Origin: Candidatus Nomurabacteria bacterium RIFCSPHIGHO2_12_FULL_42_19
GTDB lineage: Bacteria > Patescibacteriota > Minisyncoccia > Phycocordibacterales > UBA9973
Direction of reading: 5' to 3'
Length of the DNA stretch: 64,000 nt
NCBI GenBank assembly: GCA_001786955.1
Contig: MFUM01000004.1
Location: forward strand, 4,457 to 68,456
Position numbers and translations under genes: made by a program. A model generated the notes under the pieces. The model was not told the DNA's origin. It saw only the letters and a list, made by a program, of their open reading frames with translations, and did not search any database. This document shows, in pieces, positions 16,129 through 62,391 of this stretch; position 1 is the first letter of the stretch, and each line of letters begins with the position of its first letter.

Positions 16129-16513
16129 ATGGAAGAATATTATGTATTTTCTTAATTATCGTACCAAAGTCATTCTCTTTTATCATACCAATTTTTCTTG
16201 AAAGCCTTCTACTATCCAAAAGTCTTATCTGTGATAAAATACCGGCATAAGTCTTTCCACTGAACTCATATTGGTGATAATAGTTATTGTTTTTCTTGGA
16301 GCTTGTTAATGGTATCGCTAAAAATATACTGTTATTGAATTTTCTAATAATAAGGATAGGTCTTTCAAATAATTCATTTTTCCCATCTTCTTCATAACCT
16401 ATATTTTTACCAAGTGAACAAAACCATATTTCTCTTTCGTGGAAAAAGACATTAGATTTCTTGGTTGATAAACTTTTTTTTAATTTATTCCAATCGTCAT
16501 ATTCTTTTTCCAT
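16127..16513 (-). CDS. PemK/MazF-family toxin-like protein, with no adjacent antitoxin ORF
   Basis: EREIWFCSLGKNIGYEEDGKNELFERPILIIRKFN...AIPLTS...IRLLDSRRL matches the MazF/PemK fold pattern. The ATG at 16513 avoids overlap with rpoC. Confidence 0.6.
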   Translation of the reverse strand: MEKEYDDWNKLKKSLSTKKSNVFFHEREIWFCSLGKNIGYEEDGKNELFERPILIIRKFNNSIFLAIPLTSSKKNNNYYHQYEFSGKTYAGILSQIRLLDSRRLSRKIGMIKENDFGTIIKKIHNILP

Positions 16514-16520
16514 ATTTTTA

Positions 16521-19500
16521 TTATTCTTTTTTAGAAACAACTTCTCTATTTTTAAATCCGGTTCCGGCCGGAATCAGTCGTCCAATAATGACATTTTCTT
16601 TAAGCCCCCGCAGAAAATCCACTCCGCCTTTAATGGCATTTTCAATCAGGACGCGATTGGTGTTTTGGAATGAAGCGGCCGAGAGCCAGCTCTTGGTGCG
16701 GAGTGATACTTCGGTAATGCCGAGCACTACTGTTTCGGCTTTTGCTTCTTTTCCGTTTAAGTCGGCGACTCTTTGATTTTCTTCTATAAAGGCCGTATTC
16801 TCAACGATATCGCCGATTGAAAAATTAGTTTCACCTGCATCTTTTATTTTTCGCCGAGAAAACATCTGACGAATAATTATTTCCGTATGCTTTCTGGATA
16901 TTGAGGCACTTTGAAGCTCATAAACTTTGTTTATTTCAGTAATGATATATTCTTCAACCAATTCTTTATTGCCCAATTTAAACATTTCGGCAATATCGGC
17001 CGATCCATCGGTCAAAAGCTGTCCTTTTTTTACCTGCTCCCCTATTTTTACGATTGGCATTCTACGGAAAGCCACAGTGTATTCCATCTCGTTTTTCTTG
17101 CCGTCAACCTTGCTGTCAGATAGAATTTTAATTATTTTCTCTTTCCCGTCTTTAGCTTTGATTTCTATTATCTCGCCATCGGTCTCGGAAATAACTGCGG
17201 GATTTTTTGGAATCCTTCTTTCAAATATTTCCTCAACACGCGGCAGACCGGTCGTGATATCGGTTCCCGCCACGCCTCCGGCATGAAAGGTGCGAAGCGT
17301 AAGCTGCGTGCCGGGCTCACCGATAGCTTGAGCCGCGATAATGCCGACAGCCTCGCCTTGTTCCACCAGATGATTGCGCCCCAAATCAAGCCCGTAACAC
17401 ATCACGCAAAGACCGTGCACCGTTTTGCACGTAAGCGGAGAACGGACGAATACTTCCGCAAAACCCGCTCCTTCAATATTGTATGCTTCTTCTTTGGTAA
17501 TCAAAAATCCTTTCTTGTAGATGACCTTGCCGTTTTTGTCTTTAAGGTCGCCTGCGAGTATGCGTCCCCGGATGTTTTTTGAAAGCGGAATTTCAATTCC
17601 GGAAATATTTTCCCTGGTAACTATTTTTCCTTCTTTCGTGCCGCAATCCTCTTCGGTAATCACAACATCCTGCGCCACATCCACCAATCTTCGAGTCAAA
17701 TACCCGGCTTTCGCGGTGTTAAGCGCCGTGTCGGAAGCGCCTTTTCTGGCGCCATGAGTGATAACGAAATATTCAATCGGGGAAAGTCCTTCTTGATAGC
17801 AAGGAATAATCGGAAATTCCAGTGTCTTGCCCTGGTTATTTTGAATAAGACCAATCATGCCTATCATTTGTACTAGAGAACTCATCGTACCGCGGGCTCC
17901 GGAAGTAACCAAGTCAAAGGTAGAGCCATTCTGGTCAAGAGTGCCTGGCAGGACTTTTTCCAAATCTCTCTTGGTATGGGTCCAGATTTCAATAATTTTC
18001 TGGTATTTTTCTTCTTCGGAAAGCAAACCTTCGCTCCATTGGGCCAATACTGCTTCTTCCAGTTTTTTACCTTGTTCTATAATCTTCGGCTTTAAGGGAG
18101 AAACCTCCACATTGTCCAATCCCCAAGTAGTGCCGGAAACTGTCGAGTATTTGAAGCCGAATTCCTTGATTTTATCCAGAATAGGAGGAGTATTGTCCAC
18201 GCCGCAGTGTATGATAAGCTCGTCCAAGAGCGAGGATAATCTTTTTTGGTTCATTTCATCGTTCACGTAGGTAAAATCGTTAGGCAAAATGCTGTTGAAA
18301 AGAAGTTTCCCCACAGAGGTCTCAAAAATTCCCCCGTCAAACTTTCTATATTTGTGCGTATCGGTCGCGAGAACTTTTATTTTGGCGCGCAGAGACACAA
18401 CTCCGTAATCATGGGCGGTAATAGCGGTATTCGGACTGGAAAAATATTTTCCTTCTCCTTTTTCCCCATCGACAGATTTGGTCATCCAATAAGCCCCTAG
18501 GACAATATCCCGGCTTGAATGTACTATCGGGTCTCCATTTTGCGGCTTGAGCAGGTTTTTATTGGCTGCCATTAATTCTCTGGCTTCCCATTGCGCTTCC
18601 TCAAGAAGCGGAACATAGACAGCCATCTGGTCTCCATCGAAGTCAGCGTTGAAAGCCTGGCAAACCAGGGGATGCACCTGAATAGCGTTGCCTTCAATTA
18701 AAATCGGATTAAAAGCCTGAATACCCAAGCGATGCAGGGTCGGCGCGCGGTTGAGCAGCACATATTTTCCCTGAATGACTTCTTCCAACATCGCCCAGAC
18801 TTCTCCGGTCCTCTCTTCTATAAGCTTGTTGGCTCCGCGGATATTGAATGCAAGTTCCGCCTGTAGAATTTTTGAAATTACGAATGGCCGGAAAAGCTCG
18901 AGCGCCATATGCTTCGGCAATCCGCATTGGTTGAGCTTGAGCTGGGGACCGACGACGATAACCGAGCGTCCCGAATAGTCTACGCGCTTTCCCAGCAAAT
19001 TCTGGCGAAAGAGGCCTTGTTTTGACTTTAGATTATCCGACAGGGATTTCAAGGGGCGTTTTTGGGACTGACTCATCGCCGCCGAATCGTTCTGCTTGGC
19101 AATCGAGTTGTCAATCAATGCGTCAACGGCTTCCTGAATGATTCTTTTTTCGTTTCGTAAAATTACATCCGGGGCATTAATTTCTTTCAATTTTTTCAAG
19201 CGATTGTTTCTATTTATCACCCGGCGATAAAGATCGTTCAAATCGGAAGTTGCGTGCCTGCCCCCGTCGAGAGCCACCATCGGGCGAAGTACCGGCGGAA
19301 TAACCGGAATAACCGTTAGAAACATCCATTCCGGCCTGATTCCCGCGTAAGTCATCGCGCGGATAAGGGAGAGCCTTTTTTGCAGTTTTTCTTTTTCAGC
19401 CGCGCTCGCTTTTTCCGCCATCTTCTCCGTGAGATGTTTTAATTTGTTTAAATCAAGATTCTTAAAAATAGAATAAATCGCCTCGGCACCGATATTGGCT

Positions 19501-23501: not shown

Positions 23502-24236
23502 TTATCTATTTTTCTTCCATTCCTCTATTTTTTTGTGGTTTCCAGAGAGTAAAACTTTCGGAACTTTGTAATTTTTATTCTTATATTTTAAAACTTCCGG
23601 GCGGGTGTAAACTTCACTACTAGAGACTCGTTCTTCTTCTAGTGATTCATATTTACCCAAAACCCTGGGAATCTGGCGAGAAATTGAGTCTATTAAAACC
23701 ATCGCCGGTAATTCGCCTCCGGTTAAGACATAATCCCCTATTGAAATATCTTCTGCCTTAAATATCTTTTTGACCCGCATATCTATGCCTTCATAACGGC
23801 CGGAAATCAAAATAATATCGGTGTATTTTTTTACGGAATTTTTTGCATATGCCGTATTAAATTTTTTACCGGATGGAGAAAAATTTATTATTTTAATTCT
23901 AGAGCGTTTAGAAAGTGTTCTTGCGAATGGTTGACGTTGCGTAGTAGGAAATCCTGAGCGAGAACACTTTCTAAGAGCGTATTCAATAGCCTTTAGCATC
24001 GGCTCGGCTCTCATCACCATTCCCGGCCCTCCGCCGTAAGGCTTATCATCTACCGGGCGATACCCATTGTCTTTAACCCTCCTCCGCTTAAAAGCTTCGG
24101 ACGGGCGAGTAAAATCCCGCGGATTGTAAAATTTCACTTCTATCAGCTTGTTCTTCAGAGCCCGTCCGACAATAGACTCATTTAGGTATGAACTGAACAT
24201 TTCTGGGAATATGGTAATAATGTGAAATTTAATCAT
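23502..24236 (-). CDS. trmD: tRNA (guanine37-N1)-methyltransferase
   Basis: ITIFPEMF, YGGGPGMVM, GRYEGID, IGDYVLTGGELPA. Confidence 0.9.
   Translation of the reverse strand: MIKFHIITIFPEMFSSYLNESIVGRALKNKLIEVKFYNPRDFTRPSEAFKRRRVKDNGYRPVDDKPYGGGPGMVMRAEPMLKAIEYALRKCSRSGFPTTQRQPFARTLSKRSRIKIINFSPSGKKFNTAYAKNSVKKYTDIILISGRYEGIDMRVKKIFKAEDISIGDYVLTGGELPAMVLIDSISRQIPRVLGKYESLEEERVSSSEVYTRPEVLKYKNKNYKVPKVLLSGNHKKIEEWKKNR
23908..23974. repeat. family E hairpin element, in frame in trmD
   Basis: 14-bp inverted repeat TTAGAAAGTGTTCT / AGAACACTTTCTAA around the core TGCGAATGGTTGACGTTGCGTAGTAGGAAATCCTGAGCG. Flanked by the direct repeat AGAGCGT. Sister copy at 38708-38769. Confidence 0.7.
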
Positions 24237-24250
24237 AAAAAATTGCTTTG

Positions 24251-24277
24251 CCCGTCCGTAGCTTTAGCGAAGGAGGG
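24251..24277. repeat. family G hairpin element, intergenic copy
   Basis: The reverse complement CCCTCCTTCGCTAAAGCTACGGACGGG is similar to CCCGCCTTCGCTAAAGCTTCGGCGG at 59673-59697. Confidence 0.5.
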
Positions 24278-24312
24278 TAATTATATGAAAACGCATTTTT
24301 ATATTATATTAC

Positions 24313-25145: not shown

Positions 25146-27167
25146 ATGAAGGAATCTAAAAACAAATTGCAAGGTATTATTTCCATCTCTTCAAAAGGCA
25201 CAGGCTATGTGGCAACCGGAGAAGTGAAGAATAAGGGCCAGGACCCGGAAATTGATTTCCAGCATTTAAATACCGCCCTGCACGGAGATATGGTAGAGAT
25301 AATCTTGCACCCGAAAGGTAAAAATCGCCAAACTGCTGAAGTTTCAAAAATAATATCGCGCGCAAAAATGAATTTCGCGGGAGTTCTGGAAGAAGAAAAC
25401 AAAATGTTCTTCCTGAAACCGGACGATACAAAAATGTATACAGATATTCTAATCCCAACCAAGTTTTTAAATAATGCGAAAGTTGGACAAAAGGTTTTTG
25501 TGGAAATAATTTCATGGAAAGATCCCCACAAGGCTCCGGAAGGAAAAGTAATAAAAGTTTTAGGCCGTCCGGGAGACAATGATACTGAAATGGAAAGTAT
25601 TGCGATAGAAAAAGGCTTTGATGCGAAACTTCCGCATAAAGTGGAAGAAGAAGCAAGGAAAATAAAGCAAAACGGCATTAAAGAAACCGACTATGCCGGA
25701 CGCAGAGATTTTCGCAAAACCCTGACCTTCACTATTGACCCCTCGGATGCGAAAGATTTTGATGATGCGATATCTTTCAGATTCCTCCCCTCCTTAAATA
25801 AGGAGGGGGCAGGGGGTGGTAATTCAAAAGACCACCCCGCCTCCGGCACCCCTCCTAAAAAAGGAGGGGAAGAGCAATATGAAGTCGGCATACACATCGC
25901 CGATGTCTCGCATTATGTAAAAATCGGCAGTGCTTTAGATGAAGAAGCGCGAGAAAGAGGAACTTCGGTATATTTGGTAGATAGGACGATACCAATGCTG
26001 CCGGAAACGCTTTCTAATGATTTGTGCTCTCTGGTGCCAAATAAAGACCGGCTTACTATGAGCGCAGTATTTATCATAGATAAAAATGCTCATGTAAAAA
26101 GCAAATGGTTCGGGCGCACGGTTATACATTCAAAAAAAAGATTTACTTACGAAGAAGCCGAGGAGTTAATAAAAAAATCCGCTGCGCCGTTCCATAAAGA
26201 ACTTTTTATCTTGAACAGCTTGGCAAAAAAATTAACCGGGGAAAGATTTGCGCAGGGCGCAATATCGCTTGACCAGGAAGAAGTAAAATTTGTTTTGGAT
26301 AAAAATGGAGTGCCGTTGAAAGTAATAAAAAAAGAGCGCGGCGATTCAAACAGGCTGATTGAGGAATTTATGCTCCTGGCAAATAAAAAAGTGGCGGAGG
26401 TCTTGTCTCCAAAAAATATAAAGGGTGTGAAAGATGAAGGCGTATCCATATACCGAGTGCACGATCTGCCGAGTAAGGAAAAAATGGCCGATCTGGCGTT
26501 TTTTTTGCGAAGTTTGGGACATAGAGTCTCCTTGCAGAACGGCCTTATCCCGACATATGAAATAAATAAGCTTCTAGAGAGTTTGGCCGGCAAAAATGAA
26601 GAAGATACGGTGCATCGCGCAGTTATCCGTTCTATGGCTAAAGCGCTTTATTCCACCAAAAATATCGGGCATTACGGTCTGGCTTTTCAATATTATACTC
26701 ACTTCACTTCCCCGATTAGGCGCTATCCGGACATCATGGTGCACAGACTTCTGGAAAAATTCCTCTCTGGCAAAAAAATAAAAAAGGAGGATTTAAAAGA
26801 GAAATTAATCGAATATGAAAAAATCGCCCTAAATGCATCCGAACAGGAAAAACGCGCCGCAGATGCCGAACGAGCTTCCATAAAATATAAACAAGTGGAA
26901 TATATGTCCAGATATCTGGGAAAAAGCTTCGACGGGGTAATCAGCGGGATAACCGAGTGGGGCATGTATGTGGAAGAACTAGAGACAAAATGCGAAGGTT
27001 TGGTGCGGGTACGTGATATGAATGACGATTTTTATATTTTCAATGAAAAAAAATTGGAATTAACCGGACAAAAAAAGAAAAAAAAGTACAGGCTCGGCGG
27101 CCGTGTCAAAATAAAAGTAAAATCGGTTGATTTGGAGAGAAAAACGATAGATTATATATTGACATGA
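25146..27167 (+). CDS. rnr: ribonuclease R
   Basis: RNB domain motifs (TIDPSDAKDFDDAIS, HIADVSHYV, YSTKNIGHYGLA..YTHFTSPIRRYPD) and a C-terminal S1 domain. The 24954 extension is rejected. Confidence 0.9.
   Translation: MKESKNKLQGIISISSKGTGYVATGEVKNKGQDPEIDFQHLNTALHGDMVEIILHPKGKNRQTAEVSKIISRAKMNFAGVLEEENKMFFLKPDDTKMYTDILIPTKFLNNAKVGQKVFVEIISWKDPHKAPEGKVIKVLGRPGDNDTEMESIAIEKGFDAKLPHKVEEEARKIKQNGIKETDYAGRRDFRKTLTFTIDPSDAKDFDDAISFRFLPSLNKEGAGGGNSKDHPASGTPPKKGGEEQYEVGIHIADVSHYVKIGSALDEEARERGTSVYLVDRTIPMLPETLSNDLCSLVPNKDRLTMSAVFIIDKNAHVKSKWFGRTVIHSKKRFTYEEAEELIKKSAAPFHKELFILNSLAKKLTGERFAQGAISLDQEEVKFVLDKNGVPLKVIKKERGDSNRLIEEFMLLANKKVAEVLSPKNIKGVKDEGVSIYRVHDLPSKEKMADLAFFLRSLGHRVSLQNGLIPTYEINKLLESLAGKNEEDTVHRAVIRSMAKALYSTKNIGHYGLAFQYYTHFTSPIRRYPDIMVHRLLEKFLSGKKIKKEDLKEKLIEYEKIALNASEQEKRAADAERASIKYKQVEYMSRYLGKSFDGVISGITEWGMYVEELETKCEGLVRVRDMNDDFYIFNEKKLELTGQKKKKKYRLGGRVKIKVKSVDLERKTIDYILT
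25784..25870 (+). repeat. family A element (modules Y then X), in frame in rnr
   Basis: CCTCCCCTCCTTaaatAAGGAGGGGGCAGGGGGTGGTaattcaaaagACCACCCCGCCTCCGGCACCCCTCCTaaaaaAGGAGGGG. A 30-nt stretch is identical to pheS 40782-40826. Confidence 0.8.
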
Positions 27168-29100: not shown

Positions 29101-31374
29101 TTATTTCGCAATTTGAGTAGCTTCTTCGAATTTTACCGAGAGAAGTTTGGAAGCTTCGTTGGAGCCGATGGTGACGCCGTAAAGAATTCCGGCTCTGGAC
29201 ATCGTTTCGCGGTTGTGGGTAACGACGATAAGCTGGGATTGCTTGGAGAGCTTCTCCAGCATATCCCCGTATTTTCGGGAGTTTGCTTCATCCAGCGCCG
29301 CATCCGTTTCGTCCAGCACCAAAAAAGGCGGCGGATTGACTTGCGACATAGCGAAAAGAAGGGCAATGGAAGTAAGCGACCTTTCTCCCCCGGAGAAAGC
29401 GTGAAGTTCCTTGACTTTCTTGCGCGGCAAAGAGACATTGATTTCTATTCCTTTTTCAATAACGATGTTCTCATCATCTTCTGATTCCCCCATTTCATCG
29501 TCATCTTCATTGATTTCATCAACTTTTTTCTTCTTAGTTTCAATAATAGAAATAGATCCGTGTCCGCCGCCAAACATTAATGAAAAGAATTCTTGAAACT
29601 CTACGTTGATTTTTTTGACACCTTCCTTGAATTCCGTATCTATTTTTTCCTTCAAATCAGCAATAAGTATAACCAGAGATTCAATGCTTTTGGATAAATC
29701 TTCCATTTCTTTCGTTAAAAATTGATCCCGCCCGGAAACTTCTTTATATTCCTTTATCAATTCCGCTCCGTTGCCCAGGCCCGTATCTTCTAATTTTATT
29801 TTTATGCGCTCAATTTTTTTCTTTTGGTCTTCTTGGTTATGCAATTCCCCGTTGTTTTCAATTTTATAGTCCTTATAAGAAAAAACTTCCCGTCCAATCA
29901 GGATTTCCCCTTCTTTTATCTCATTTTCAAAAGATTCGGCCCTATTTTTCAAATTCCCTTCTTTGATAGCCACAAGTTCCAGAGCGGAAGACAATTCTTG
30001 TTGTCTGACTCTCCAGGCAAATTTCTCCCGTTCAAGATCGCGTAAGGCCTCCATTTCCTTGTTTATTTCTTGTTTCAGTATCTCTATTGATTTGGCAATT
30101 TCTTTTTCTTTGCTTTCAATCCCTTTCATTTCTTCCAAGATTGCCTGCTGGGTTTTTTTTAGTTTTTCAATTTCTAAATTGTGGCTGGATTCATCCTTGT
30201 CATTTTGAGAGAATTTTTTCAAAATATTCTTAATACTCTCCAAAACGGGCCTAATCTCCTCAATACTTTCTTTTAAAAAAGCCAAATCTATAGAATTATT
30301 TATCTCACTGATTATGGCTTTGATTTCTTCCTGTGAAATTTCTATAAATAGGGATTTCTGTTCTTTCCTGCGTTCTTCCATTTCAACCATTCCCTCTATC
30401 CGCCCAAGCTTGCGTTCTATTTCACTTTTTACTCCGCGAAGGGAGTTGAGGCCTTCCTCAATTTTTCTCAATTCTTCTATTTTACCCCCACCCATCCTCC
30501 CCCTTATTAAGGGGGAGGTGTCAGAATGACGGAGGGGGTCGTTGTTTTCAACAATAGAAATTTTACCAGTTACATTTTTAAGTTCATTTGAAAGCTTGTT
30601 CCTTTCAGATGATAAATCGGCTTTCTCTTTCTCCAAAAAGATGCTTTCTTTCTTCAGATATTCCCCGTAAAGAGCCGTCAGCTCTGTTTGCATTTCTTTT
30701 GTTTTTTCAAATTTTTCCACCTGTTTCTTGAGAAAGTTAAGATGTGGGGCATTTTCCCGCCGCATTAAGGAAACCTCTTTCATGTTTTCATTCGTCCGTT
30801 CAAGTTTTCTCTCGCTTTCTTTTATCTTATATTGATAAATTTTAAGTCCCAAGGCATCTTCTACCATTTCTTTTTTTTCTCTTGCATTGGCGCTCAAAAT
30901 CCTGTCTGTCTCGCCCTGAGAAATAATGTGATGCCCGGAAGAACCTATGTTGACCGAGGCCAGCAAATTGTGAATATCCTTCAGTCTGACTTCTGTGCCA
31001 TTTAAAATATATTTATTCAACCCATCGGAAAAAACCTCGCGGGAAATTGAAATAACATCATAATTCAAATTAATATTCTCTCCCCCGTCATTGGAAAGCT
31101 TGAAAATTTTGTCGGAATTATTGAAATAGATGGTGACGGACGCCCGTGAGGCTTTTGGCAGATTTTTAGAACCTTTAAAAATGAGATCCGAACCGCCTTT
31201 TCCGCGCATGGATTTCATGGATTGTTCGCCCAAAACAAAGCGGATGGATTCCACCACATTGGATTTTCCGGATCCGTTCGGGCCGACAATGGAAACAATG
31301 GGATTTTCAAACTCTAAAACAGTTTTTTGGGCAAAAGACTTAAAACCATTTAGCTGGAGTGTTTTGAGCCGCAT
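29101..31374 (-). CDS. smc: SMC-like chromosome segregation ATPase, short (757 aa), no recognisable hinge
   Basis: Walker A GPNGSGKSN, signature LSGGERSL and Walker B LVLDETDAALD. The middle is coiled-coil. Confidence 0.8.
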   Translation of the reverse strand: MRLKTLQLNGFKSFAQKTVLEFENPIVSIVGPNGSGKSNVVESIRFVLGEQSMKSMRGKGGSDLIFKGSKNLPKASRASVTIYFNNSDKIFKLSNDGGENINLNYDVISISREVFSDGLNKYILNGTEVRLKDIHNLLASVNIGSSGHHIISQGETDRILSANAREKKEMVEDALGLKIYQYKIKESERKLERTNENMKEVSLMRRENAPHLNFLKKQVEKFEKTKEMQTELTALYGEYLKKESIFLEKEKADLSSERNKLSNELKNVTGKISIVENNDPLRHSDTSPLIRGRMGGGKIEELRKIEEGLNSLRGVKSEIERKLGRIEGMVEMEERRKEQKSLFIEISQEEIKAIISEINNSIDLAFLKESIEEIRPVLESIKNILKKFSQNDKDESSHNLEIEKLKKTQQAILEEMKGIESKEKEIAKSIEILKQEINKEMEALRDLEREKFAWRVRQQELSSALELVAIKEGNLKNRAESFENEIKEGEILIGREVFSYKDYKIENNGELHNQEDQKKKIERIKIKLEDTGLGNGAELIKEYKEVSGRDQFLTKEMEDLSKSIESLVILIADLKEKIDTEFKEGVKKINVEFQEFFSLMFGGGHGSISIIETKKKKVDEINEDDDEMGESEDDENIVIEKGIEINVSLPRKKVKELHAFSGGERSLTSIALLFAMSQVNPPPFLVLDETDAALDEANSRKYGDMLEKLSKQSQLIVVTHNRETMSRAGILYGVTIGSNEASKLLSVKFEEATQIAK
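30484..30540 (-). repeat. family A module X copy, in frame in smc
   Basis: The coding strand GACCCCCTCCGTCATTCTGACACCTCCCCCTTAATAAGGGGGAGGATGGGTGGGGG encodes DPLRHSDTSPLIRGRMGGG. Confidence 0.65.
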
Positions 31375-32110: not shown

Positions 32111-33041
32111 CCGCCTTGCTAATTAACGGGATAATGTCGTTATAAATACGGAGTTCCGGGATTGCGGAAAGCTCAAACCATCTTGCCCCATCCAGTCCGC
32201 CGGATTTTTCCAAGGCAAGTTCTCTGTATTCGCTCTTGGCTAAAAAATAAACCACCTTTTTCAGGCTTTTTCCTTTTTCTGGATGCGTTGCCACATATTC
32301 GTTTTCCCCCAATTTTTCTTCCATTTTAATATCAAGCCCGATTTCTTCCTTTATTTCTCTGATTGTCGCTTCTTCTTCGTTTTCTCCCTTTTCAATACTG
32401 CCCTTGGAAATAGTCCAATAGCCGAAAACATCATGCACTAATGCAAAAAAGACTTTGTTATTCTTTTTCGCATAAACAAGCGCTCCGCCTTTTTTCTCAA
32501 CTGGCAATTTTGCAGTATCCGGCACTTCTTCGTGTTTTTTCTTTCTGCTGACTTGTTCTTTTCCGGGCTCGCCTATTTCTTTATAAACCGCGCCTAAGAC
32601 GCCGTTGACGAATTTACCGGAATTCTCTCCGCCGAAAGTTTTTGCCAGTTCTATCGCTTCATTGATAGCCACTTTCGGAGGCACTTCCTTCCTGTCGCCA
32701 AAAAGGAGCTCCGTTAGGCCGATTCTCAGAATATTCCTGTCAACAACAGAAATCTTATCTATCGGCCAATCAGGCGCGGCCTTTTCTATGATTTCGTCAA
32801 TCATTGCGCGCTTCTTTAACACTTTATCCATAAGCGAGAACACAAAAACATCATCCTCCAACCCTGGGGCAAATTCTTTTAAATTTCTTTTGAGAATATT
32901 ATTTATCTCTCCGGAAATATCGGAATTGCTGATTTTCTTATCATCGGACCCGCCTGCGCTCGACTGTGGCGAGGCGAGCAGGAAATCCCACTCAAAAAGC
33001 GTCTGAAGAACTATTGATCTGGAAAGGTGCCTATTTGCCAT
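32079..33041 (-). CDS. nusB: NusB - NUDIX hydrolase fusion protein
   Basis: The N-terminal NusB fold ([13 protein letters not shown]...[27 protein letters not shown]) is followed by a Nudix box [23 protein letters not shown]. Confidence 0.8.
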
Positions 33042-33432: not shown

Positions 33433-35208
33433 ATGGAAAAGACTGAAAAACTAGGCAATTTAAGGCATACTCTGGCTCACCTGCTCGCATCGGCCATCGG
33501 AGAGATTTATAAATTTGATAAAATCAAACTTACCCTCGGTCCGGCCATAGATAATGGCTTTTATTATGATATTGATTTTTGCGGCGAAAAAATGACCGAT
33601 GCGGATTTGAAAAAAATTGAAGATAAAATGCGGAAAAATTTGCCTAAATGGACAGAATGGGAACATAAAGAAATAAGCAAGGACGAAGCGTTAGAATTTT
33701 TCAAAAACGAATACAAGGCGGAATTAATAAATGAAATCGCCCTACGCGGAGAGAAAATTACTACTTATACTTGCGGAGGATTTACTGATTTATGCCGTGG
33801 TGGACACTTGGCGCATCCGTCTAAAGAAATAGATCCGGATTCTTTCAAGCTGGACCGCGTGGCCGGCGCTTACTGGCGAGGAGATGAGAAGAACAAAATG
33901 CTCACCCGAATTTACGGATTGGCTTTTGAGACCAAAGAAGAACTGGATGCATATTTAACACAAAGAGAGGAAGCAGAAAAAAGAGACCATCGAAAGCTCG
34001 GACAAGAGCTTGATATTTTTATTTTTGATGACGATGTCGGCCCGGGACTTCCGCTTTGGTTGCCAAATGGCGCCGTGATTATTGAAGAACTGGAAAAATT
34101 AGCAAAAGAAACGGAAGAAAAAGCCGGATATGTTCGTGTGCGCACTCCCCATATTGCCAAAGAATCAATGTATAAAAAAAGCGGGCATTTGCCTTATTAT
34201 GCAGACAGCATGTATTCGCCGATGGACTGTGAAGGAGAAAATTACTATCTCAAAGCGATGAATTGCCCGCACCATCATAAAATTTTTGCCGCGCGGCCAA
34301 AAAGCTATCGTGATTTGCCCCTGCGGCTTGCCGAATATGGCACAGTCTATCGTTATGAAAAATCCGGAGAACTTTTCGGGCTTATGCGCGTACGCTCCCT
34401 CTCAATGAATGACGCGCATATTTATTGTTCGGAAAAACAATTCGCGAATGAATTTCGCGCAGTTAATGAAATGTATCTTAAATATTTTAAAATTTTCGGA
34501 GTTGAAAAGTATATAATGCGATTCTCTACCCATGATCCGAAAGAACTTGGAAAAAAATATGTGGACGAACCGGAGCTCTGGCTGAAAACGGAAAAAATGG
34601 TCCGTGATGTTCTGATTGAATCAAAAATTCCATATGTTGAGGTGCCGAATGAAGCGGCTTTTTATGGGCCAAAAATAGATGTGCAAGTCTGGAGTGCTAT
34701 TGGGAAAGAGTTTACTCTGGCCACCAACCAGGTTGATTTTGCAGTGCCTAAGCGTTTTGATTTAACATTCACAAATAAAGAAGGCAAGGCAGAAACTCCG
34801 CTTTGTATCCATCGTGCGCCGCTCGGCACCCATGAAAGATTTATCGGCTTCTTGATTGAGCATTATGCCGGCATCTTCCCTCTTTGGCTCTCGCCAGTGC
34901 AGGTAAAAGTAATTCCTGTCCGCACAAATCATAATGAATATGCGAAGCAGATTTTTGAATTATTAAAAGAAAATAACATCCGTGCGGAATTGGATGATAG
35001 CGATGAAAACCTCGGCACAAAAGTCCGCGATGCAAAAAATAAAAAAATGCCTTACTGGATAGTCATCGGCGACAAAGAAATAGAAGCAAAAAAAGTAACT
35101 CTTGAATCCCGCCTGCCTGCGCAGGCAGGCGACGCTGGACAATTAGGACAAATTTCAAAAGAAGAACTCGTCGCAAAACTTGTGGCCGAGGTCAAAATTA
35201 AAATATAA
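33433..35208 (+). CDS. thrS: threonyl-tRNA synthetase lacking the N-terminal TGS domain
   Basis: Starts at the editing-domain HTLAHLL motif. Class II core and a C-terminal anticodon-binding domain. TATAAA lies 6 nt before the ATG at 33433. Confidence 0.93.
   Translation: MEKTEKLGNLRHTLAHLLASAIGEIYKFDKIKLTLGPAIDNGFYYDIDFCGEKMTDADLKKIEDKMRKNLPKWTEWEHKEISKDEALEFFKNEYKAELINEIALRGEKITTYTCGGFTDLCRGGHLAHPSKEIDPDSFKLDRVAGAYWRGDEKNKMLTRIYGLAFETKEELDAYLTQREEAEKRDHRKLGQELDIFIFDDDVGPGLPLWLPNGAVIIEELEKLAKETEEKAGYVRVRTPHIAKESMYKKSGHLPYYADSMYSPMDCEGENYYLKAMNCPHHHKIFAARPKSYRDLPLRLAEYGTVYRYEKSGELFGLMRVRSLSMNDAHIYCSEKQFANEFRAVNEMYLKYFKIFGVEKYIMRFSTHDPKELGKKYVDEPELWLKTEKMVRDVLIESKIPYVEVPNEAAFYGPKIDVQVWSAIGKEFTLATNQVDFAVPKRFDLTFTNKEGKAETPLCIHRAPLGTHERFIGFLIEHYAGIFPLWLSPVQVKVIPVRTNHNEYAKQIFELLKENNIRAELDDSDENLGTKVRDAKNKKMPYWIVIGDKEIEAKKVTLESRLPAQAGDAGQLGQISKEELVAKLVAEVKIKI
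35110..35131. repeat. family B perfect 22-bp palindrome, in frame in thrS
   Basis: CGCCTGCCTGCGCAGGCAGGCG encodes RLPAQAGD. Confidence 0.7.
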
Positions 35209-35513: not shown

Positions 35514-35957
35514 TTATTTTGTTGCATCGTAATCTTCAATATTCTCTTCAATAAAAGAATTTATTATATTCATAATATTATGTCTTTCTTCTGGTTTGCT
35601 TTCAGCAACTTTACAGGCAAATTGATAGATATCTTGGTTGGGAGTAGAGAGCCATTTGCCATTTTGAACAAGAAAAAATAGCAGTGTTGTAACTGCAATT
35701 CTTTTATTGCCGTTTTGAAAGGGGTGATTTTTTACCATCAAATAAAAGAGTATTGCTGATTTCCCGATAAGGCCTTCGTATAAACTTTTTCTATCAAAAG
35801 TTTGAAATGGTGTTGCAATACAACTTTCCAATTTATCTGGAAAACGCGTTTCAAAGTCAGGAATTGGTTCATTCCATTCCATAAATTCCTTGGCGAGTTG
35901 AAAAGCGATATATTCCACATCTGCCAGATTAATACGTTTAATCGTTTGACGTGCCAT
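35514..35957 (-). CDS. doc: Doc (death-on-curing, Fic-fold) toxin
   Basis: HPFQNGNKRIAV matches the Fic/Doc motif HxFx(D/N)(A/G)NKR. Confidence 0.85.
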   Translation of the reverse strand: MARQTIKRINLADVEYIAFQLAKEFMEWNEPIPDFETRFPDKLESCIATPFQTFDRKSLYEGLIGKSAILFYLMVKNHPFQNGNKRIAVTTLLFFLVQNGKWLSTPNQDIYQFACKVAESKPEERHNIMNIINSFIEENIEDYDATK

Positions 35958-35967
35958 AAAATTTTAA

Positions 35968-36252
35968 TTATTCTTTTCCGAGTTTTCGCAATGCGGGACC
36001 ATATTTCTTTACCACACGCTTAACAACATCTTCTATATCCTTTTTGCGACGATCTGGCACAAAAACGCCTAAAATGGTCTCATATTCTTCTCTTGGAATA
36101 ATATAATTTCTTCCAATTTTTTCAGCATGTATTTGGCCTGACCGAATCTTCTTAAAAATAGCAACTCTGGAAACACCAAGAAGTTTCGCTATTTCCGGCG
36201 CAGAAAAGTACTTTTTGCTCTCTCCTTCAAAAATATGCTTATTTTTCAACAT
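35968..36252 (-). CDS. excisionase-type HTH DNA-binding protein, putative antitoxin of Doc
   Basis: SAPEIAKLLGVSRVAIFKKIRSGQIHAEKIG helix-turn-helix. Lies 10 nt upstream of doc. Confidence 0.65.
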   Translation of the reverse strand: MLKNKHIFEGESKKYFSAPEIAKLLGVSRVAIFKKIRSGQIHAEKIGRNYIIPREEYETILGVFVPDRRKKDIEDVVKRVVKKYGPALRKLGKE

Positions 36253-36291: not shown

Positions 36292-38397
<2,106 letters not shown>

Positions 38398-38412: not shown

Positions 38413-40269
38413 TTACCGCACTTGCCAACCATTATTCTCCTTGATTTTATTGGTTATTTGAGTCATAACTGCATTTATTTCCGCATCTGTAAGAGTCCTA
38501 TCAAAAGACTGGAAAACTACCCTAAAAGCATAAGAGATTTTATCGTCCTTTTTAAACTCATCAAAGAGTTCCGGGCCACGAATTGCAAGACTTCCGGCAT
38601 TATTTTTTATAATTTTTTCTACATCTTTACTTTTAACTCCCTCCGGCACCCAGACGGCAATATCGCGTGCGATAAAAGGAAACAAGGACCACATCTTAAA
38701 AGCTCCGCCTGTGTGCTTTTGCGAACGGTGACGTTGCGAAGCAGGATATTCCTGAGCAAAAGCATCAGGCGAGGCTGATTTACAAAATTCTTCAAGACTC
38801 ATTTCTTTTACTTCTTTTTTATTTCCATAAGCCACATTCATTTCTTCCCCGCTCTTTTTAAACACCGTTCCAATTTCAAAAATTTTTATTTCGTCCATCC
38901 CCAACAAAGGCACGTTGAGTTGGTTTAATTTCAAACTTTCCTTCAGTCCGTCAGTCAGATTCGTCCGCAAAAATTTTTTATCCGAAGCGCTCTGCATCAC
39001 TTCCACTTCCCCACTATTACAAAAAGTATAAGTCATTACTTCACTATATCCTTCGCCGAGCAATTTATTTCTCGCCCAGGAAATCTTCGCATAAGTTTCA
39101 TTTACTTTTGTTTTAAAATTAATTTTTGGTATTTTTCCTTTTACTTTGTCATAGCCAATAATCCTTCCGATTTCTTCTGCCATATCTTCCTCAATTACTA
39201 AATCAAGCCGCATCGGTGGCACGGTGATTACGTATTCTTCTCCCCCTGCTAAGGGGGAGTGCCCATCGGGCGAGGGGGTCTTTGTATATTCAAAGTTATA
39301 TCTTTTCAAAATATCTTCCACTTGAGACACAGAAATGTCCAAACCAAGAATTTTTGAAATTTTTTCCACCGAGAAAGAAAGCTTTCTGATCTCCTGTTTT
39401 TGGGGATAGACATCGACAATGTTTTCAAAAATAGCTTCCGGACACATTTCTAAAATAAGCGCCGATAATTCCAGCATAGCGTGCGGGCCAAGTTCCGGAG
39501 ATAAATCGTTTTCAAAGCGCTTGCGTGCGTCCGTAAATATATTCAAAGCCTGCGCGGTTTTTCTTACGGAAGTTGGATTAAAATTAGCAACTTCCAGAAT
39601 TATATCTTTTGTATTATTATCTACTTCCGCAATTTTCCCGCCCTTGATGCCAGCAATGGCTAAGACATTCTTATCGTCCGAAATGACCATATTTGAAGAT
39701 TTGAACTTTATTTCTTTATTGTCCAGGGTGGTCATCTCCTCGCCGTCTTTACCGTTTCGGACAATTATGTCGCCCTGTATTTTATCCAAATCAAAAGCAT
39801 GTGCGGGCTGACCGCAATCAAACATCACAATATTCGCCGCATCTACCACATTATTTATGCTTCTCTGCCCTATTGACTCCAGATGCTTTATGACCCATTC
39901 CGGACTGGTGCCAATTTTAATATTCTTTACAATTCTCCCCATATATCTTCTACATTTATCTGATTGGACATCAATTTTTAATTCTGCCTGCCCCGCCGGA
40001 GCCTTGGGCGCAGGCGGGGGAATTTTATACTTCGGAGCAGGATCAACATACTTTATATTTAAAAGTGAAGCGAGTTCACGCGCCACGCCCTGGTGGCTAA
40101 GTAAATCATGCGCGCGGTTTGGCAAGATTTTCAAATCAAAAATATTATCATCCCCTTTTTTCTCTAAACTCTCAACTTCACAAAGATGGTAATTAAAAAC
40201 ATCCACAAATTTTTCTGCATCAGGTGCTTCCGGTATATACCATTTGAGCCAATTGTAAGAAATCAACAT
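38413..40269 (-). CDS. pheT: phenylalanyl-tRNA synthetase beta subunit (short form)
   Basis: B3/4, B5 and FDX-ACB-like C-terminal regions. Directly downstream of pheS. Confidence 0.9.
   Translation of the reverse strand: MLISYNWLKWYIPEAPDAEKFVDVFNYHLCEVESLEKKGDDNIFDLKILPNRAHDLLSHQGVARELASLLNIKYVDPAPKYKIPPPAPKAPAGQAELKIDVQSDKCRRYMGRIVKNIKIGTSPEWVIKHLESIGQRSINNVVDAANIVMFDCGQPAHAFDLDKIQGDIIVRNGKDGEEMTTLDNKEIKFKSSNMVISDDKNVLAIAGIKGGKIAEVDNNTKDIILEVANFNPTSVRKTAQALNIFTDARKRFENDLSPELGPHAMLELSALILEMCPEAIFENIVDVYPQKQEIRKLSFSVEKISKILGLDISVSQVEDILKRYNFEYTKTPSPDGHSPLAGGEEYVITVPPMRLDLVIEEDMAEEIGRIIGYDKVKGKIPKINFKTKVNETYAKISWARNKLLGEGYSEVMTYTFCNSGEVEVMQSASDKKFLRTNLTDGLKESLKLNQLNVPLLGMDEIKIFEIGTVFKKSGEEMNVAYGNKKEVKEMSLEEFCKSASPDAFAQEYPASQRHRSQKHTGGAFKMWSLFPFIARDIAVWVPEGVKSKDVEKIIKNNAGSLAIRGPELFDEFKKDDKISYAFRVVFQSFDRTLTDAEINAVMTQITNKIKENNGWQVR
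38708..38769. repeat. family E hairpin element, in frame in pheT
   Basis: TGCTTTTGC / GCAAAAGCA arms around the core TGCGAACGGTGACGTTGCGAAGCAGGATATTCCTGAGC. Compare trmD 23908-23974. Confidence 0.65.
39237..39280 (-). repeat. family A module X copy, in frame in pheT
   Basis: The coding strand GACCCCCTCGCCCGATGGGCACTCCCCCTTAGCAGGGGGAGAAG encodes TPSPDGHSPLAGGEE. Confidence 0.65.
39984..40020. repeat. family B-like GC-rich insert, in frame in pheT
   Basis: CTGCCTGCCCCGCCggagccttgggcgcaGGCGGGGG encodes PPPAPKAPAGQAE. Confidence 0.55.
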
Positions 40270-40280: not shown

Positions 40281-41072
40281 TTAAAACTGATTGAGGCGTA
40301 AATCTCCCTGATAAAAAAGTCTAACATCCGGAATACCCCATTTAATCATAGCAATACGGTCCAATCCTCCGCCGAAAGCAAAACCTTGGTATTTTTTAGG
40401 GTCCAAGCCGCAATTTTTGAGTACATTTGGGTGTAAAACACCTGAACCCATCATCTCAAGCCACTTCCCTTTGAACTTGGCGAAAACTTCCAGAGATGGT
40501 TCGGTAAAAGGGAAAAAACTGGGGCGAAATTCTACCTCCACATCATCACTCAACATTTTTTTGTAAAAATGGGTTAATACGCCCTTCAAATCAGCAAGGG
40601 AAACATTTTCTCCCACCATTGCTCCGTCTATCTGATAAAATTGCATTTCGTGCGTTGCATCCGTAGCTTCGTTGCGGAAAACTTTTCCGATGGAAATAAA
40701 AGCGGCTGGCAATCTGCCGTCTTTGCCCGCTTGCTCAATCGCGCGGGCGGTTACGGTCGTCGTATGTGTTCGCAACACAGATTTTGAATTACCACCCCCT
40801 GCCCCCTCCTTATCAAGGCGGGGAGGATTCTTTTCTCCTCCTGCCTGAGGAGGAGTGCCCGAAGGACGAGGTGGTTCTTTTATCCAAAATGTATCCTGCA
40901 TATCCAGCGCCGGATGGTCTTTCGAAAAATTCAAGGCGTAAAAGTTATACCAGTCGCTCTCCAGCTCCGGCCCGGTCGCGATTTCAAAACCAAGCTCCGA
41001 AAAAGCCCGATAAGCCTCCTCGGCTAACAGAGAAAGCGGATGTATTGTGCCCTTTTTTATGTCTTCGTTCAT
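40281..41072 (-). CDS. pheS: phenylalanyl-tRNA synthetase alpha subunit (catalytic core only)
   Basis: Class II motifs (LRTHTT, FRNEATDATH, GFAFGGGLDRIAM). The N-terminal coiled coil is absent. Confidence 0.9.
   Translation of the reverse strand: MNEDIKKGTIHPLSLLAEEAYRAFSELGFEIATGPELESDWYNFYALNFSKDHPALDMQDTFWIKEPPRPSGTPPQAGGEKNPPRLDKEGAGGGNSKSVLRTHTTTVTARAIEQAGKDGRLPAAFISIGKVFRNEATDATHEMQFYQIDGAMVGENVSLADLKGVLTHFYKKMLSDDVEVEFRPSFFPFTEPSLEVFAKFKGKWLEMMGSGVLHPNVLKNCGLDPKKYQGFAFGGGLDRIAMIKWGIPDVRLFYQGDLRLNQF
40782..40875 (-). repeat. family A element (modules X then Y), in frame in pheS
   Basis: The coding strand ACCACCTCGTCCTTCGGGCACTCCTCCTCAGGCAGGAGGAGAAAAGAATCCTCCCCGCCTTGATAAGGAGGGGGCAGGGGGTGGTAATTCAAAA encodes PPRPSGTPPQAGGEKNPPRLDKEGAGGGNSK. 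Confidence 0.8.
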
Positions 41073-44818: not shown

Positions 44819-47014
44819 TTATAACATACTTAAAAATTCTTTCTCGCTTAATATTTTTACACCCAGCTTTTCGGCAACTTTAAGCTTGGAGCCCGGGTCC
44901 GCTCCGGCTACGATATAGGAAGTATTTTTTGAGACGGAACCCGCGACTTTCCCTCCGAGAGCCAGGATTCTTTCTTTAGCAATTTCTCGGGACATTTGGG
45001 AAAGCGTCCCGGTCAAAACGAAATGTAATTCGGTAAATTTGTCGGCTTTCTTTTTTTCCGCTCTTTCCACGATTACGCCATTTCTTTGCAATTTTTTTAT
45101 GAAATTCAAATTATTTTTATTATTAAAAAAATCATAAACGCTTTTTGATACAGCCGGGCCGATGTTTTCTATACTATCTATCTCAGCAAGGACTCCCCTT
45201 GCTGAAGTTATTAATTTTTCCAGAGTGCCAAAGTGTAGCGCTAAATCTCTTGCTGTTTCCTCCCCCACATGCAGGATTCCGAGCGCCCACAGAAAGCGTG
45301 AAAAAGGGATTTTCTTTTTATTTTTTATTTCATTGATTATGTTTTCCGCCGATTTTTCCCCAAAGCGTTCCAGGAGCGCTATATCTTCTTTTTTAAGGGT
45401 GAAAATGTCGGCTGCGTCGGTAATGAGCCCTTCGTCCTTGAATCTTCTCAGTATTTTCGGGCCTAATTCATAAATTTCAAAGACAGAAACAAAATGCTCT
45501 AAATACCTTTCGTTTTTTGCCGGGCATTTAGGATTGCTGCAATAATGAGCGACAGAGATATTCTCCAGCTCGCAAGATTTCTGAGTCGCGTAAGTCCCAC
45601 CCGGTACCCCGGGAAGGGTCAAGCGCGAAGAAATCTCGTGAGCCGAAGAATCCCCCATCTTTTTCTTCCTAACTTTTCCTCCGCAGGCCGGGCATTTGTC
45701 CGGCATTTTGAATTTTTTTTCTTTGCCTGTCCGCATCCGAATCAGCACCTCCACTACTTTCGGTATCACATCGCCGGCTTTTTCTATCACGACCGTATCC
45801 CCGATACGCAAATCAAGGCGCTCTATCTGGTCCATATTATGGAGAGTAGCCTTGGACACCCGGGAACCCGCCACCAGCGTCGGCTCAAAAAGAGCGAGCG
45901 GTGTCAATACACCGGTACGCCCGACATTTACCTTTATATCCTTTACTATTGTTGTCGCTCTTTCCGCCGGATATTTGAATGCCACCATAAAGCGCGGCGC
46001 CTTGCCGACCACCCCTAGTGTCTCCTGTAATTTCAAATCGTCCACCGAGACAACGACGCCGTCCGTGCCGTAGAGAAAATCGGGCCTGATTTTTTCAAAT
46101 TTCTTTATGAAAGTAAACACTTCATTCATATTAGCGCACAGAGCCTCCAATTTCTCAACTTTAAATCCAATCCTGCGGAGCATTTGATGTTTTTCGGAGT
46201 GGGTTTGCATAGCCGAATCATGAATTTTCTGAGTCGCGTAAGTCCCACCCCGTACTCGGGGAAGGGTCAAGCGCGAAGAAAATTCATGATTCGGCGTAGC
46301 CTCGGCTATATCGTAAGCAAAAAAATCCAATTCCCTTTTGGCGGCTAATTTTGGATCCAGCTGCCGCAAACTTCCTGCCGCGGCATTTCGGGTATTGGCA
46401 AAAAGGGGTTTTCCTTTTTTCTCATTTTCTTTATTCAATTTAACGAGCATTTCTTTGCTCAAAAGCGCTTCTCCGCGGATTTCCAGGTGCGGAAGGTATG
46501 GTTTTTGGAGAAGAAGTGGAATTGAATGTATGGTTTTGAGATTTTGGGTTATGTCTTCCCCAATTAATCCGTCTCCTCTCGTTGCGCCGCGCATAAACTT
46601 GCCATTTTCATAAACAAGCGAAACTGCCAACCCGTCAAACTTGACTTCGCAAAAATAATTAAATTTCGCGCGCGCAGGTAAAAGCTTTTTGATTCTTGTT
46701 TCCCACTCATATAATTCTGTCTCACTAAAAGCATCATTAAGAGAAAGCATGCGGGTTTTGTGCTGAACTTTTACAAATTTATTAAGCGGTTTGCCGGCTA
46801 CTCTGTTTTCCGGAGCATTTAAATCGTTAAATTCGGGGTATTTTTTCAAAAGCTCTTTAAGCTCGTGAGTGAGAGAATCGTAAACATCGTCGGTTACACC
46901 GGGGGCGTTTTGGGTATGATATAAATCACGCAAACGCGCGATTTCTTTTCGTAATTTTTTTACCCGCTTGGATTCGGCGAGGCTGGTTCTTTTTTTATCT
47001 TCCACCTCTTTCAT
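44819..47014 (-). CDS. ligA: NAD-dependent DNA ligase
   Basis: Adenylation motif CEVKFDGLA, OB fold, Zn finger CPACG...CSNPKCPAK, HhH and BRCT domains. About 60 aa longer than usual because of two inserts. Confidence 0.95.
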   Translation of the reverse strand: MKEVEDKKRTSLAESKRVKKLRKEIARLRDLYHTQNAPGVTDDVYDSLTHELKELLKKYPEFNDLNAPENRVAGKPLNKFVKVQHKTRMLSLNDAFSETELYEWETRIKKLLPARAKFNYFCEVKFDGLAVSLVYENGKFMRGATRGDGLIGEDITQNLKTIHSIPLLLQKPYLPHLEIRGEALLSKEMLVKLNKENEKKGKPLFANTRNAAAGSLRQLDPKLAAKRELDFFAYDIAEATPNHEFSSRLTLPRVRGGTYATQKIHDSAMQTHSEKHQMLRRIGFKVEKLEALCANMNEVFTFIKKFEKIRPDFLYGTDGVVVSVDDLKLQETLGVVGKAPRFMVAFKYPAERATTIVKDIKVNVGRTGVLTPLALFEPTLVAGSRVSKATLHNMDQIERLDLRIGDTVVIEKAGDVIPKVVEVLIRMRTGKEKKFKMPDKCPACGGKVRKKKMGDSSAHEISSRLTLPGVPGGTYATQKSCELENISVAHYCSNPKCPAKNERYLEHFVSVFEIYELGPKILRRFKDEGLITDAADIFTLKKEDIALLERFGEKSAENIINEIKNKKKIPFSRFLWALGILHVGEETARDLALHFGTLEKLITSARGVLAEIDSIENIGPAVSKSVYDFFNNKNNLNFIKKLQRNGVIVERAEKKKADKFTELHFVLTGTLSQMSREIAKERILALGGKVAGSVSKNTSYIVAGADPGSKLKVAEKLGVKILSEKEFLSML
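45568..45642 (-). repeat. family C hairpin element copy 1, in frame in the ligA Zn finger (75 nt)
   Basis: Outer arms GCTCGCAAGATTTC/GAAATCTCGTGAGC. Core TTCTGAGTCGCGTAAGTCCCACCCGGTACCCCGGGAAGGGTCAAGCGCGAAGAAA. Confidence 0.8.
46212..46295 (-). repeat. family C hairpin element copy 2, in frame in the ligA adenylation region (84 nt)
   Basis: Perfect 17-bp arms GCCGAATCATGAATTTT/AAAATTCATGATTCGGC. The core differs from copy 1 at 3 positions. Confidence 0.8.
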
Positions 47015-51112: not shown

Positions 51113-51163
51113 AATCTTAATTTCTAAACTAAATTAATAATAATTAATAATGCAATTTCGACT

Positions 51164-51190
51164 CCCGCCTGCTCCCATAGGGCGGGCAGG
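51164..51190. repeat. family B-like hairpin, intergenic between pilC and pilA
   Basis: CCCGCCtgctcccatagGGCGGGcagg. Confidence 0.45.
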
Positions 51191-51241
51191 TATTTTTAAT
51201 ACGTTCATTATAACATATATGCAAAAAAGTTATCCACACCC

Positions 51242-62148: not shown

Positions 62149-62391
62149 CTACCGATAATAAATTAAATGCTTTTTTAAAAACGCTCGACCGGAGCCAGAT
62201 TTTAAATATTTTTCAAAATTAAAAGCCTTGTATTTGTCTTTTGTTGCAAAGTAAAAATCTAATTCCACTGGCAAACGAGTCGAGGTAGCGGGCACGTTAC
62301 CTTTTTTGTGTCTACTCAATCTGTCTTTCAAATTGTCAGTACAACCAATATAAAAACCATCTTTACATTTTAAACTGTACACATAATACAT
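62149..62391 (-). CDS. GIY-YIG nuclease superfamily protein (80 aa)
   Basis: YYVYSLKC.DGFYIGCTDNLKDRLSRH matches the GIY-YIG N-terminal motif. Confidence 0.8.
   Translation of the reverse strand: MYYVYSLKCKDGFYIGCTDNLKDRLSRHKKGNVPATSTRLPVELDFYFATKDKYKAFNFEKYLKSGSGRAFLKKHLIYYR

Follow-up and report, generated by a model that had tools for sequence, protein, structure and literature searches.

Three hairpin inserts in pheT

The DNA analyzed here, a 64,000-nucleotide (nt) stretch of contig MFUM01000004.1 from Candidatus Nomurabacteria bacterium RIFCSPHIGHO2_12_FULL_42_19 (hereafter the window), has a GC (guanine plus cytosine) content of 41.4%. It carries pheT, which encodes the beta subunit of phenylalanyl-tRNA synthetase (PheRS) and is flanked by gyrB (36292-38391) and pheS (40281-41072). 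Three palindromic blocks within pheT, named E, AX and B, are the subject of this study. The initial annotation, which had been made from the sequence alone, reported three frame-keeping hairpin inserts in this one gene, and all three were indeed found at the reported places within a single open reading frame (ORF):

38413-40269, minus strand: pheT, phenylalanyl-tRNA synthetase beta subunit, 618 amino acids; one uninterrupted ORF, identified by Pfam domains and alignment to the structure 2rhs_B
38701-38776, minus strand: family E element, a 76-nt Y-shaped palindrome, defined by its fold, family copies and stem covariation
39239-39279, minus strand: AX element, module X of the composite family A, defined by its fold, an empty-site alignment and family matches
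39984-40022, minus strand: B-type element, defined by a 7-bp stem at 39991-40019, a recurrent core and the alignment of the site

Pfam searches recognized the domains B3_4 (residues 105-276), B5 (298-373), a partial CLM (380-475, profile positions 5-111 of 214) and FDX-ACB (528-618). Solved PheRS beta chains have about 795 amino acids; relative to these, the alignment to 2rhs_B indicated that the protein is a reduced form without the B2 domain and around 65 residues between CLM and FDX-ACB, and about half of B6/7 is absent. PheT in this lineage falls about 180 residues short of the solved bacterial chains, with B2 and part of B6/7 gone, and the family E site occupies the position where the missing part of B6/7 would sit. 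The identical protein was found on 22 contigs of several sources, including the Candidatus Nomurabacteria metagenome-assembled genomes GW2011_GWC2_41_8 and RIFCSP bins. An AlphaFold model of PheT was modest, with a mean predicted local distance difference test (pLDDT) score of 61, and all three inserts were modelled as coil with pLDDT below 50 (residues 77-97 at block B, 336-342, and 500-530 at block E). The inserts map to coil or linker regions, which may lie at the protein surface.

Block E had been described as a GC-rich palindrome at 38708-38769. Its reported core is present, at 38720-38757; the palindrome proved to be wider, however, and only moderately GC-rich (0.55 vs 0.41 for the window). 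The outer arms (38701-38722 and 38756-38776; sequences AGCTCCGCCTGTGTGCTTTTGC and GCAAAAGCATCAGGCGAGGCT) pair and enclose two small inner hairpins. The sense strand folds with -32.3 kcal/mol (z = -4.55), a value reached by none of 200 shuffles, and the antisense strand with -38.4 kcal/mol. The block encodes SASPDAFAQEYPASQRHRSQKHTGGA in the linker ahead of FDX-ACB. Block AX consists of a perfect 8-bp GC stem (CTCCCCCT/AGGGGGAG) at 39240-39259 and a 4-bp hairpin (z = -2.54; 3 of 200 shuffles as good), and it lengthens a beta-hairpin loop in B5 by a net 33 nt, encoding TPSPDGHSPLA. The stem of block B, CCCCGCC/GGCGGGG, spans 7 bp and its fold alone barely beats GC-matched shuffles (z = -1.72; 9 of 200 as good). 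Its core, GCAGGCGGG, nevertheless occurs seven times in the window against 0.38 expected, a count matched by none of 100 shuffles. The peptide encoded by block B, PPAPKAPAGQA, falls in the linker that joins the N-terminal domain to B3_4.

Occupancy of the pheT sites in related genomes

We gathered 120 PheT orthologues (64-74% identity, 592-646 amino acids), took pheT with its flanks from 80 species-level genomes (the related loci; L numbers below name related genomes or contigs), and aligned the codons of the 53 complete pheT genes, in which occupancy of the AX and B sites was counted. The blocks are not conserved in PheT, in contrast to the conservation across unrelated phyla by which the initial annotation would have been refuted. 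The AX loop has a short, empty form (for example, FEYTENAGKFEI) in 46 of the 53 genomes, and the B site likewise (KYKIPESKPTKLKIE) in 45. Against Staphylococcus PheRS beta (2rhs_B), the AX peptide coincides exactly with an 11-residue gap between two B5 strands. Where the AX and B loops of other genomes are occupied, they hold different hairpin families that are unrelated in sequence: at least five unrelated families in the seven genomes with a filled AX loop, and at least three families at the B site. The linker at site E differs in nearly every genome and holds at least eight families. Sites B and E lie in variable linkers, where a block looks like a swap of loop codons and not like a clean insertion.

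On a PheT tree computed without the insert regions, each element family is scattered. Across the 53 genes, GC-rich hairpin segments (GC 0.5-0.78 vs 0.377 for the gene) occur at 10 or more PheT positions, and nearly all indels of six codons or more outside the linker are hairpins of this kind. The density of three inserts in one pheT, on which the initial annotation had remarked, is thus high, but it is not exceptional in the clade. The filling of single loops by several families is not confined to pheT, as 16 of 55 genomes have one pheS loop occupied, with at least six families represented, E and A among them.

The same sites bear on a non-mobile, local origin, in which template switching or fold-back repair at quasi-palindromes would make hairpins de novo in tolerant loops and perfect them. 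Perfect stems whose sequences differ between genomes, the lack of a target-site duplication and the apparent replacement of loop codons are all compatible with such a process. However, the arms are unlike the empty-site sequences, and we rejected a fold-back duplication of host sequence on this ground; moreover, stretches of 30-90 nt reappear in unrelated genes and genomes with 86-100% identity, as described below. We consider a local origin very unlikely.

Element families and their copies in other genes

The initial annotation held that each block has a sister copy in another gene of the window, and this was borne out for all three. Host genes of the families are pheT, pheS, trmD, the RNase R gene, the SMC gene, tsf, thrS, cca and ileS, all ordinary housekeeping genes. 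Copies in the window were located as follows:

23910-23972, minus strand: family E sister copy in trmD (nhmmer E = 2e-11; alignment)
40782-40877, minus strand: composite family A element in pheS, order X-Y-tail, holding the AX sister copy at 40833-40877
25783-25873, plus strand: composite family A element in the RNase R gene, order Y-tail-X, with 32 nt 100% identical to the pheS copy
30487-30545, minus strand: X-type copy in the SMC gene, about 70% identical to AX of pheT and partly in another frame
8597-8646, plus strand: B-type hairpin in tsf (EF-Ts), sharing GCGCAGGCGGGG with block B of pheT
35101-35142, plus strand: B-type hairpin in thrS, encoding RLPAQAGD (core/hairpin match)
32941-32983: B-type match in nusB (core/hairpin match)
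51157-51193, no strand assigned: intergenic B-type copy (core/hairpin match)

The trmD copy of family E was detected only by a family profile built from the pheT copies; blastn-short of block E against the window returned no match beyond 11 nt. Relative to Escherichia coli TrmD (1p9p), the trmD copy brings in about 19 extra residues. Its central 35 nt are conserved, its stem has a different sequence that is still complementary, and one-base indels shift part of it into another reading frame. Elsewhere, family E was found in pheS (L038, L076), in the gene of the CCA-adding enzyme, cca (L082, L087), in ileS (L085) and in a ychF-like gene (L086). The cca copy on the metagenome contig L082 shares 52 of 53 core bases with block E of the window. 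Peptide-level searches for further hosts gave no candidates with a 57-residue concatenated query, and a 30-residue segment of the window scored against none of 1.84 billion representatives; both queries are too short to show absence. No exact family A or E cores were found in viral contigs.

Block AX was confirmed as module X of the pheS element, the stem change from CTCCTCCT/AGGAGGAG to CTCCCCCT/AGGGGGAG being compensated, and its sister copies lie in pheS, in the RNase R gene (at about 25840-25873) and in the SMC gene. About 24 separate sites are occupied by family A across the data set, among them sites in pheT, pheS and RNase R, and 22 of the sites lie inside long ORFs. The permuted order of modules in pheS and RNase R suggests either that independent hairpin units inserted next to each other or that an intermediate was circular or tandem. 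Modules X and Y were also found singly in other genes. Block B is a copy, now diverged, of the element that the nearest relatives carry at this site (CCCGCCTCCGCTAAAGCTACGGCGGGCAAGCC); the window has more copies of that element at 24256-24286 and 59664-59694.

Because some copies are partly read in other frames (trmD, SMC), the similarity lies at the DNA and not at the protein level, and the blocks are families of DNA, not protein motifs. Compared with the genes in which they lie, the elements are also strikingly alike: block E is 86% identical to its counterpart in L024, where the host coding sequence is 66% and its third codon positions 43% identical, and block AX is 95% identical to that of L018 (68% and 49%, respectively). 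The elements are therefore younger or more constrained than the host gene.

Within ORFs, family A copies always have one orientation and frame, and the same is true of family E apart from the partly shifted trmD copy. This suggests that the encoded peptide also matters. It is, in addition, what would be expected if the inserts were a lineage-specific adaptation of the PheRS protein, selected for the peptide that nearly all family A and E copies thereby conserve. Yet the same peptides occur in unrelated enzymes and are patchy among close relatives, the trmD and SMC copies are partly in other frames, and the inserts fall in low-confidence coil; we regard protein adaptation as highly improbable.

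Stem covariation and strand preference

In family E (15 copies), both partners have changed in 13 of the 23 outer-stem pairs, and pairing holds in 80.6% of cells. The covariation score was not reached by any of 500 shuffles, and sliding the partner by one to three columns lowered pairing to 31-49%. As the copies are related, this test suggests covariation and does not give a formal probability. Stems are kept perfect in a further group, 'family G', which has the form ACTTGG-N13-CCACTTGG-N13'-CCAAGT. Its five copies have perfect stems of 20-21 bp built on four different N13 sequences, always complementary, and two of them lie at the AX loop of pheT:

'family G' copies: L008 10971-11012; L054 10988-11031; L062 7676-7719; L016 2325-2366; L072 876-917

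An insert in gyrB of the window (36541-36580) looks related to this group.

Family E (38701-38776, 23910-23972) is alone in folding 6-8 kcal/mol better on the antisense strand. Mismatches in its stems on the sense strand are A.C in 25 cases and G.T in 8, and so correspond to wobble pairs on the antisense strand. The other families had no such bias, and a general asymmetry was rejected, nine elements folding better on one strand and eight on the other.

These patterns could also be read as the mark of functional cis-acting nucleic-acid structures under selection, with spread being secondary; possible roles are an mRNA stabilizer or processing site, a translation pause at domain borders, or a DNA signal for replication, recombination or uptake. 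The covarying and, in some families, perfect stems, the loops and ends that stay fixed while stems change, the placement of two of the three pheT sites at domain borders and the antisense preference of family E, with its wobble pairs, are all consistent with this explanation. Most orthologues, however, have AX and B sites free of hairpins and can be presumed to function, and unrelated sequences fill the same loops. Domain-border placement is equally expected from tolerance of insertions, the strand asymmetry is not general, and an Rfam scan matched no family at any block, returning three tRNAs only. A cis-acting function, the strongest of the rival readings, is therefore unlikely in our view, with a small but real chance of being correct.

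Hairpin enrichment and reading frame

GC-rich perfect hairpins number 26 in the window, compared with 2-12 in shuffled sequences, and 128 in the window and the 80 related loci together, compared with 22-25, around a fivefold excess. As the initial annotation had proposed, we compared their frequency in ORFs and spacers. Hairpin density was 0.063 per kb inside long ORFs and 0.446 per kb in spacers (0.259 per kb once terminator-like hairpins with a T-run are removed), which makes spacers 4-7 times richer in them. Still, 78 of the 128 (61%) lie inside long ORFs, because the genomes are about 92% coding.

Of the 80 pheT genes, 78 are open, free of stops and in one frame through all inserts. The two exceptions are L076, with a gap in the scaffold, and L069, with a deletion of the linker near a contig end. 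Together with the depletion in ORFs and the constant frame of families A and E, this supports the filtering of insertions by selection that the initial annotation had proposed. Two apparent disruptions of pheT were considered and rejected. The split gene of one European Nucleotide Archive assembly (P0124/P0126), taken as a candidate break at the AX hairpin, results from a single AAA-to-TAA substitution upstream and is unrelated, and the frame switch in pheT of L076 is a run of N in the scaffold. In L069 (11440-11500), pheT is without the entire site-E linker and changes frame within an A-run (GAATACAATAAATAAAAAATTCCAGATGTGG); this could be an assembly collapse at the palindrome or a real deletion.

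GC-rich hairpins in the genes of AT-rich yeast mitochondria, the byp elements, are bypassed. Their likeness to the blocks described here, and the L069 gene that is frameshifted exactly at site E, raise the question of whether the blocks are translated at all or are instead removed by ribosome bypassing or mRNA excision, or are assembly artefacts. Bypassed elements may have any length, multiple of three or not, and may contain stops, whereas here the frame is kept and free of stops in 78 of 80 pheT genes, the two others being those with the scaffold gap and the deletion near a contig end. Furthermore, an identical protein is encoded on 22 contigs of several sources. We regard the idea that the blocks are not translated as highly improbable.

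Evidence for and against mobility

Taken together, these results lead us to propose that the blocks are probably selfish palindromic elements, akin to the Rickettsia palindromic elements (RPEs), that were retained in permissive loops. Small (about 35-95 nt), hairpin-forming, GC-rich repeats of three families would have multiplied across the genomes of Nomurabacteria, behaving as selfish, non-autonomous mobile DNA. Insertions into genes would mostly have been lost, the survivors being those that kept the frame, brought no stops and placed a short Pro/Gly/Ser/Ala-rich peptide in a surface loop or interdomain linker; PheT would offer at least 10 such permissive positions, three of them filled in this genome. 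The inserts would be translated, and TPSPDGHSPLAGGEEYVITVPPMR is an example of a predicted tryptic peptide that crosses one of them. Movement may proceed via a folded single-stranded intermediate, known by its shape and a few bases, with the enzyme supplied in trans, and the stems may stay complementary through selection on pairing or through arm-to-arm correction. Conserved loops and ends combined with free but complementary stems would be the pattern expected if a folded single strand is recognized.

The initial annotation went further and inferred an active or recently active population. The patchy distribution on the tree, the five or more families at the AX loop and the identity of elements above that of the host gene support elements that are mobile or were formerly so; they do not demonstrate current activity.

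Several observations weigh against the proposed explanation or limit it. All seven full-length members of the 90% protein cluster have 618 amino acids, so that there is no presence/absence polymorphism within the species-level cluster. None of the 23 window proteins scanned is a transposase, an insertion-sequence protein or RAYT-like (resembling the tyrosine transposases associated with repetitive extragenic palindromic sequences, REPs), and a tblastn search with an IS200 TnpA query gave no match in 1.36 Mb. Pairs of filled and empty sites at the AX, B and pheS loops, from genomes about 70% identical, showed no consistent target-site duplication. The elements seem instead to replace loop codons (the 41-nt AX element adds a net 33 nt), and a recombination or repair route is therefore as likely as transposition. 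Covariation of the stems is not expected of ordinary terminal inverted repeats and could point to a function in cis. The structural model, with its mean pLDDT of 61, is weak. Finally, freedom from stops follows in part trivially from GC richness: block B is open in all six frames, and blocks E and AX in four of the six each.

The sole nuclease-like candidate among the window proteins is a stand-alone GIY-YIG nuclease-domain protein of 80 amino acids, encoded at 62149-62391 beside a tRNA gene; nothing ties it to the elements.

A bolder proposal, which we offer tentatively, is that these are a distinct class of ultra-small mobile hairpins, in which the folded single strand is recognized by shape and a few loop or end bases and the stems are actively kept perfect within coding sequence, by arm-to-arm correction or by selection, so that they form a continuing source of new loops in essential proteins across Patescibacteria. 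Were it true, genomes of the candidate phyla radiation (CPR) would harbour an undescribed transposition or repair mechanism, and not merely RPE-like relics.

Comparison with known systems

RPEs (Ogata 2000, 2002, as summarized in PMC10969869) comprise several families inserted in frame in unrelated housekeeping genes. According to the same summary, their constant orientation and frame give a conserved peptide per family, their sites are tolerated by the protein fold, and they measure about 100-150 bp, have no known transposase and inhabit a reduced-genome host. The Nomurabacteria elements resemble RPEs, as far as that summary describes them, in being dispersed palindromic families (E, A with modules X and Y, and B) with several copies each in the window and the related loci, and in that copies in unrelated genes preserve the ORF and keep to one orientation and frame, with trmD and SMC as partial exceptions. 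They differ from RPEs as summarized there in length (76, 41 and about 39 nt, and about 95 nt for the composite A), being two to four times shorter. They also differ, to the extent of that account, in consisting of single hairpin modules that form GC-rich islands in a 41% GC genome of a Patescibacteria/CPR host, in striking the same loops repeatedly with different families, and in having stems that co-vary or are perfect. By analogy, the elements would work like RPEs; we do not file them among RPEs, a separation drawn from the description in the review.

Double-hairpin elements of fungal mitochondria are similar short GC-rich hairpins. The GC clusters of yeast mitochondria (PMC4478555) are likewise very short GC-rich hairpins that multiply in an AT-rich compact genome with no element-encoded enzyme; they form several families, clustered or nested, and occasionally lie in coding regions. 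They are, however, organellar and mostly intergenic, and some have short characteristic flanking repeats, none of which were seen here. REPs and the mosaics that they form (bacterial interspersed mosaic elements, BIMEs), with their RAYT enzymes (PMC3733652), are 20-40-nt imperfect palindromes that act as folded single strands, with structure conserved above sequence, and their mosaics recall the combination of modules X and Y. Unlike the hairpins here, 61% of which are in ORFs, REPs have an extragenic location, and they bear a GTAG or CGTC head (PMC3733652). No RAYT gene was found in the sequence examined, and on inspection the aligned copies of families E and A showed no consistent head tetranucleotide.

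Bacterial transposable elements of the miniature inverted-repeat kind (MITEs) that fuse in frame, such as the QMITEs of Coxiella (PMC5896051; review PMC10969869), are also non-autonomous, have inverted termini and sometimes extend or modify ORFs. Unlike our elements, they are usually longer than 100 bp, and they have target-site duplications (PMC5896051; PMC10969869), of which filled and empty sites here gave no consistent sign. Their terminal repeats are conserved in sequence and match a parent insertion sequence, whereas here the arms vary with compensating changes. The mitochondrial coding palindromes of Nematomorpha (PMC6649704) are perfect or near-perfect inverted repeats in functional genes with both arms translated, and show that perfect inverted repeats are compatible with protein function. 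In contrast to the elements described here, they span conserved parts of the protein, are up to 284 bp long and do not form dispersed families (PMC6649704).

In a literature search of incomplete coverage, no report of such elements came up for CPR or Patescibacteria. Translated palindromic repeats within essential genes have been described as peculiar to Rickettsia, the title of Ogata et al. 2002, as cited in PMC10969869, calling them 'unique'. If our interpretation is right, the phenomenon arose independently in another reduced-genome lineage, in a version that is denser, smaller and more diverse, and the elements would explain much of why core CPR proteins vary in length. Annotators and phylogeneticists should be careful not to take such segments for homologous protein sequence. 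The recurrent filling of the same loops also provides a natural map of insertion-tolerant sites in conserved enzymes, and the conserved loops with covarying or perfect stems point to a structure-dependent mechanism.

Further hairpins and other features of the window

Other genes of the window also contain palindromic or repeated segments. The NAD-dependent DNA ligase gene has two in-frame copies (45578-45641 and 46226-46289) of a further 64-nt element, 91% identical and encoding SSRLTLPGVPGGTYATQK, one of which splits the adenylation domain match in two. The primase gene dnaG contains, at 14504-14548, a perfect palindrome whose 20-bp stem closes a loop of 5 nt (TAGCGGACGTTGGACGTCCG AGTTC CGGACGTCCAACGTCCGCTA), in frame and encoding 14 residues.

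A motif of about 26-46 nt occurs three times (412-457, 4319-4364 and 63260-63305), reading TTGCGYGACGTGATTTYGCAAAATCA and then ATG on the gene strand. Each copy lies directly upstream of, and overlaps, the start codon of a minus-strand gene and contains a TTGCG/CGCAA inverted repeat. The motif may be a shared operator or a 5' leader structure; it has TTTTGCGAA in common with family E and is not a family E copy.

In L076 (12082-15480), the gyrB orthologue encodes 1132 amino acids compared with 699, owing to a large intein-like insertion that starts with CFSGDT and ends with VHNS. The window also holds two toxin-antitoxin-like loci, at 16127-16540 and 35514-36252, one with a MazF/PemK-like toxin and the other with a Fic/DOC protein next to a helix-turn-helix protein.

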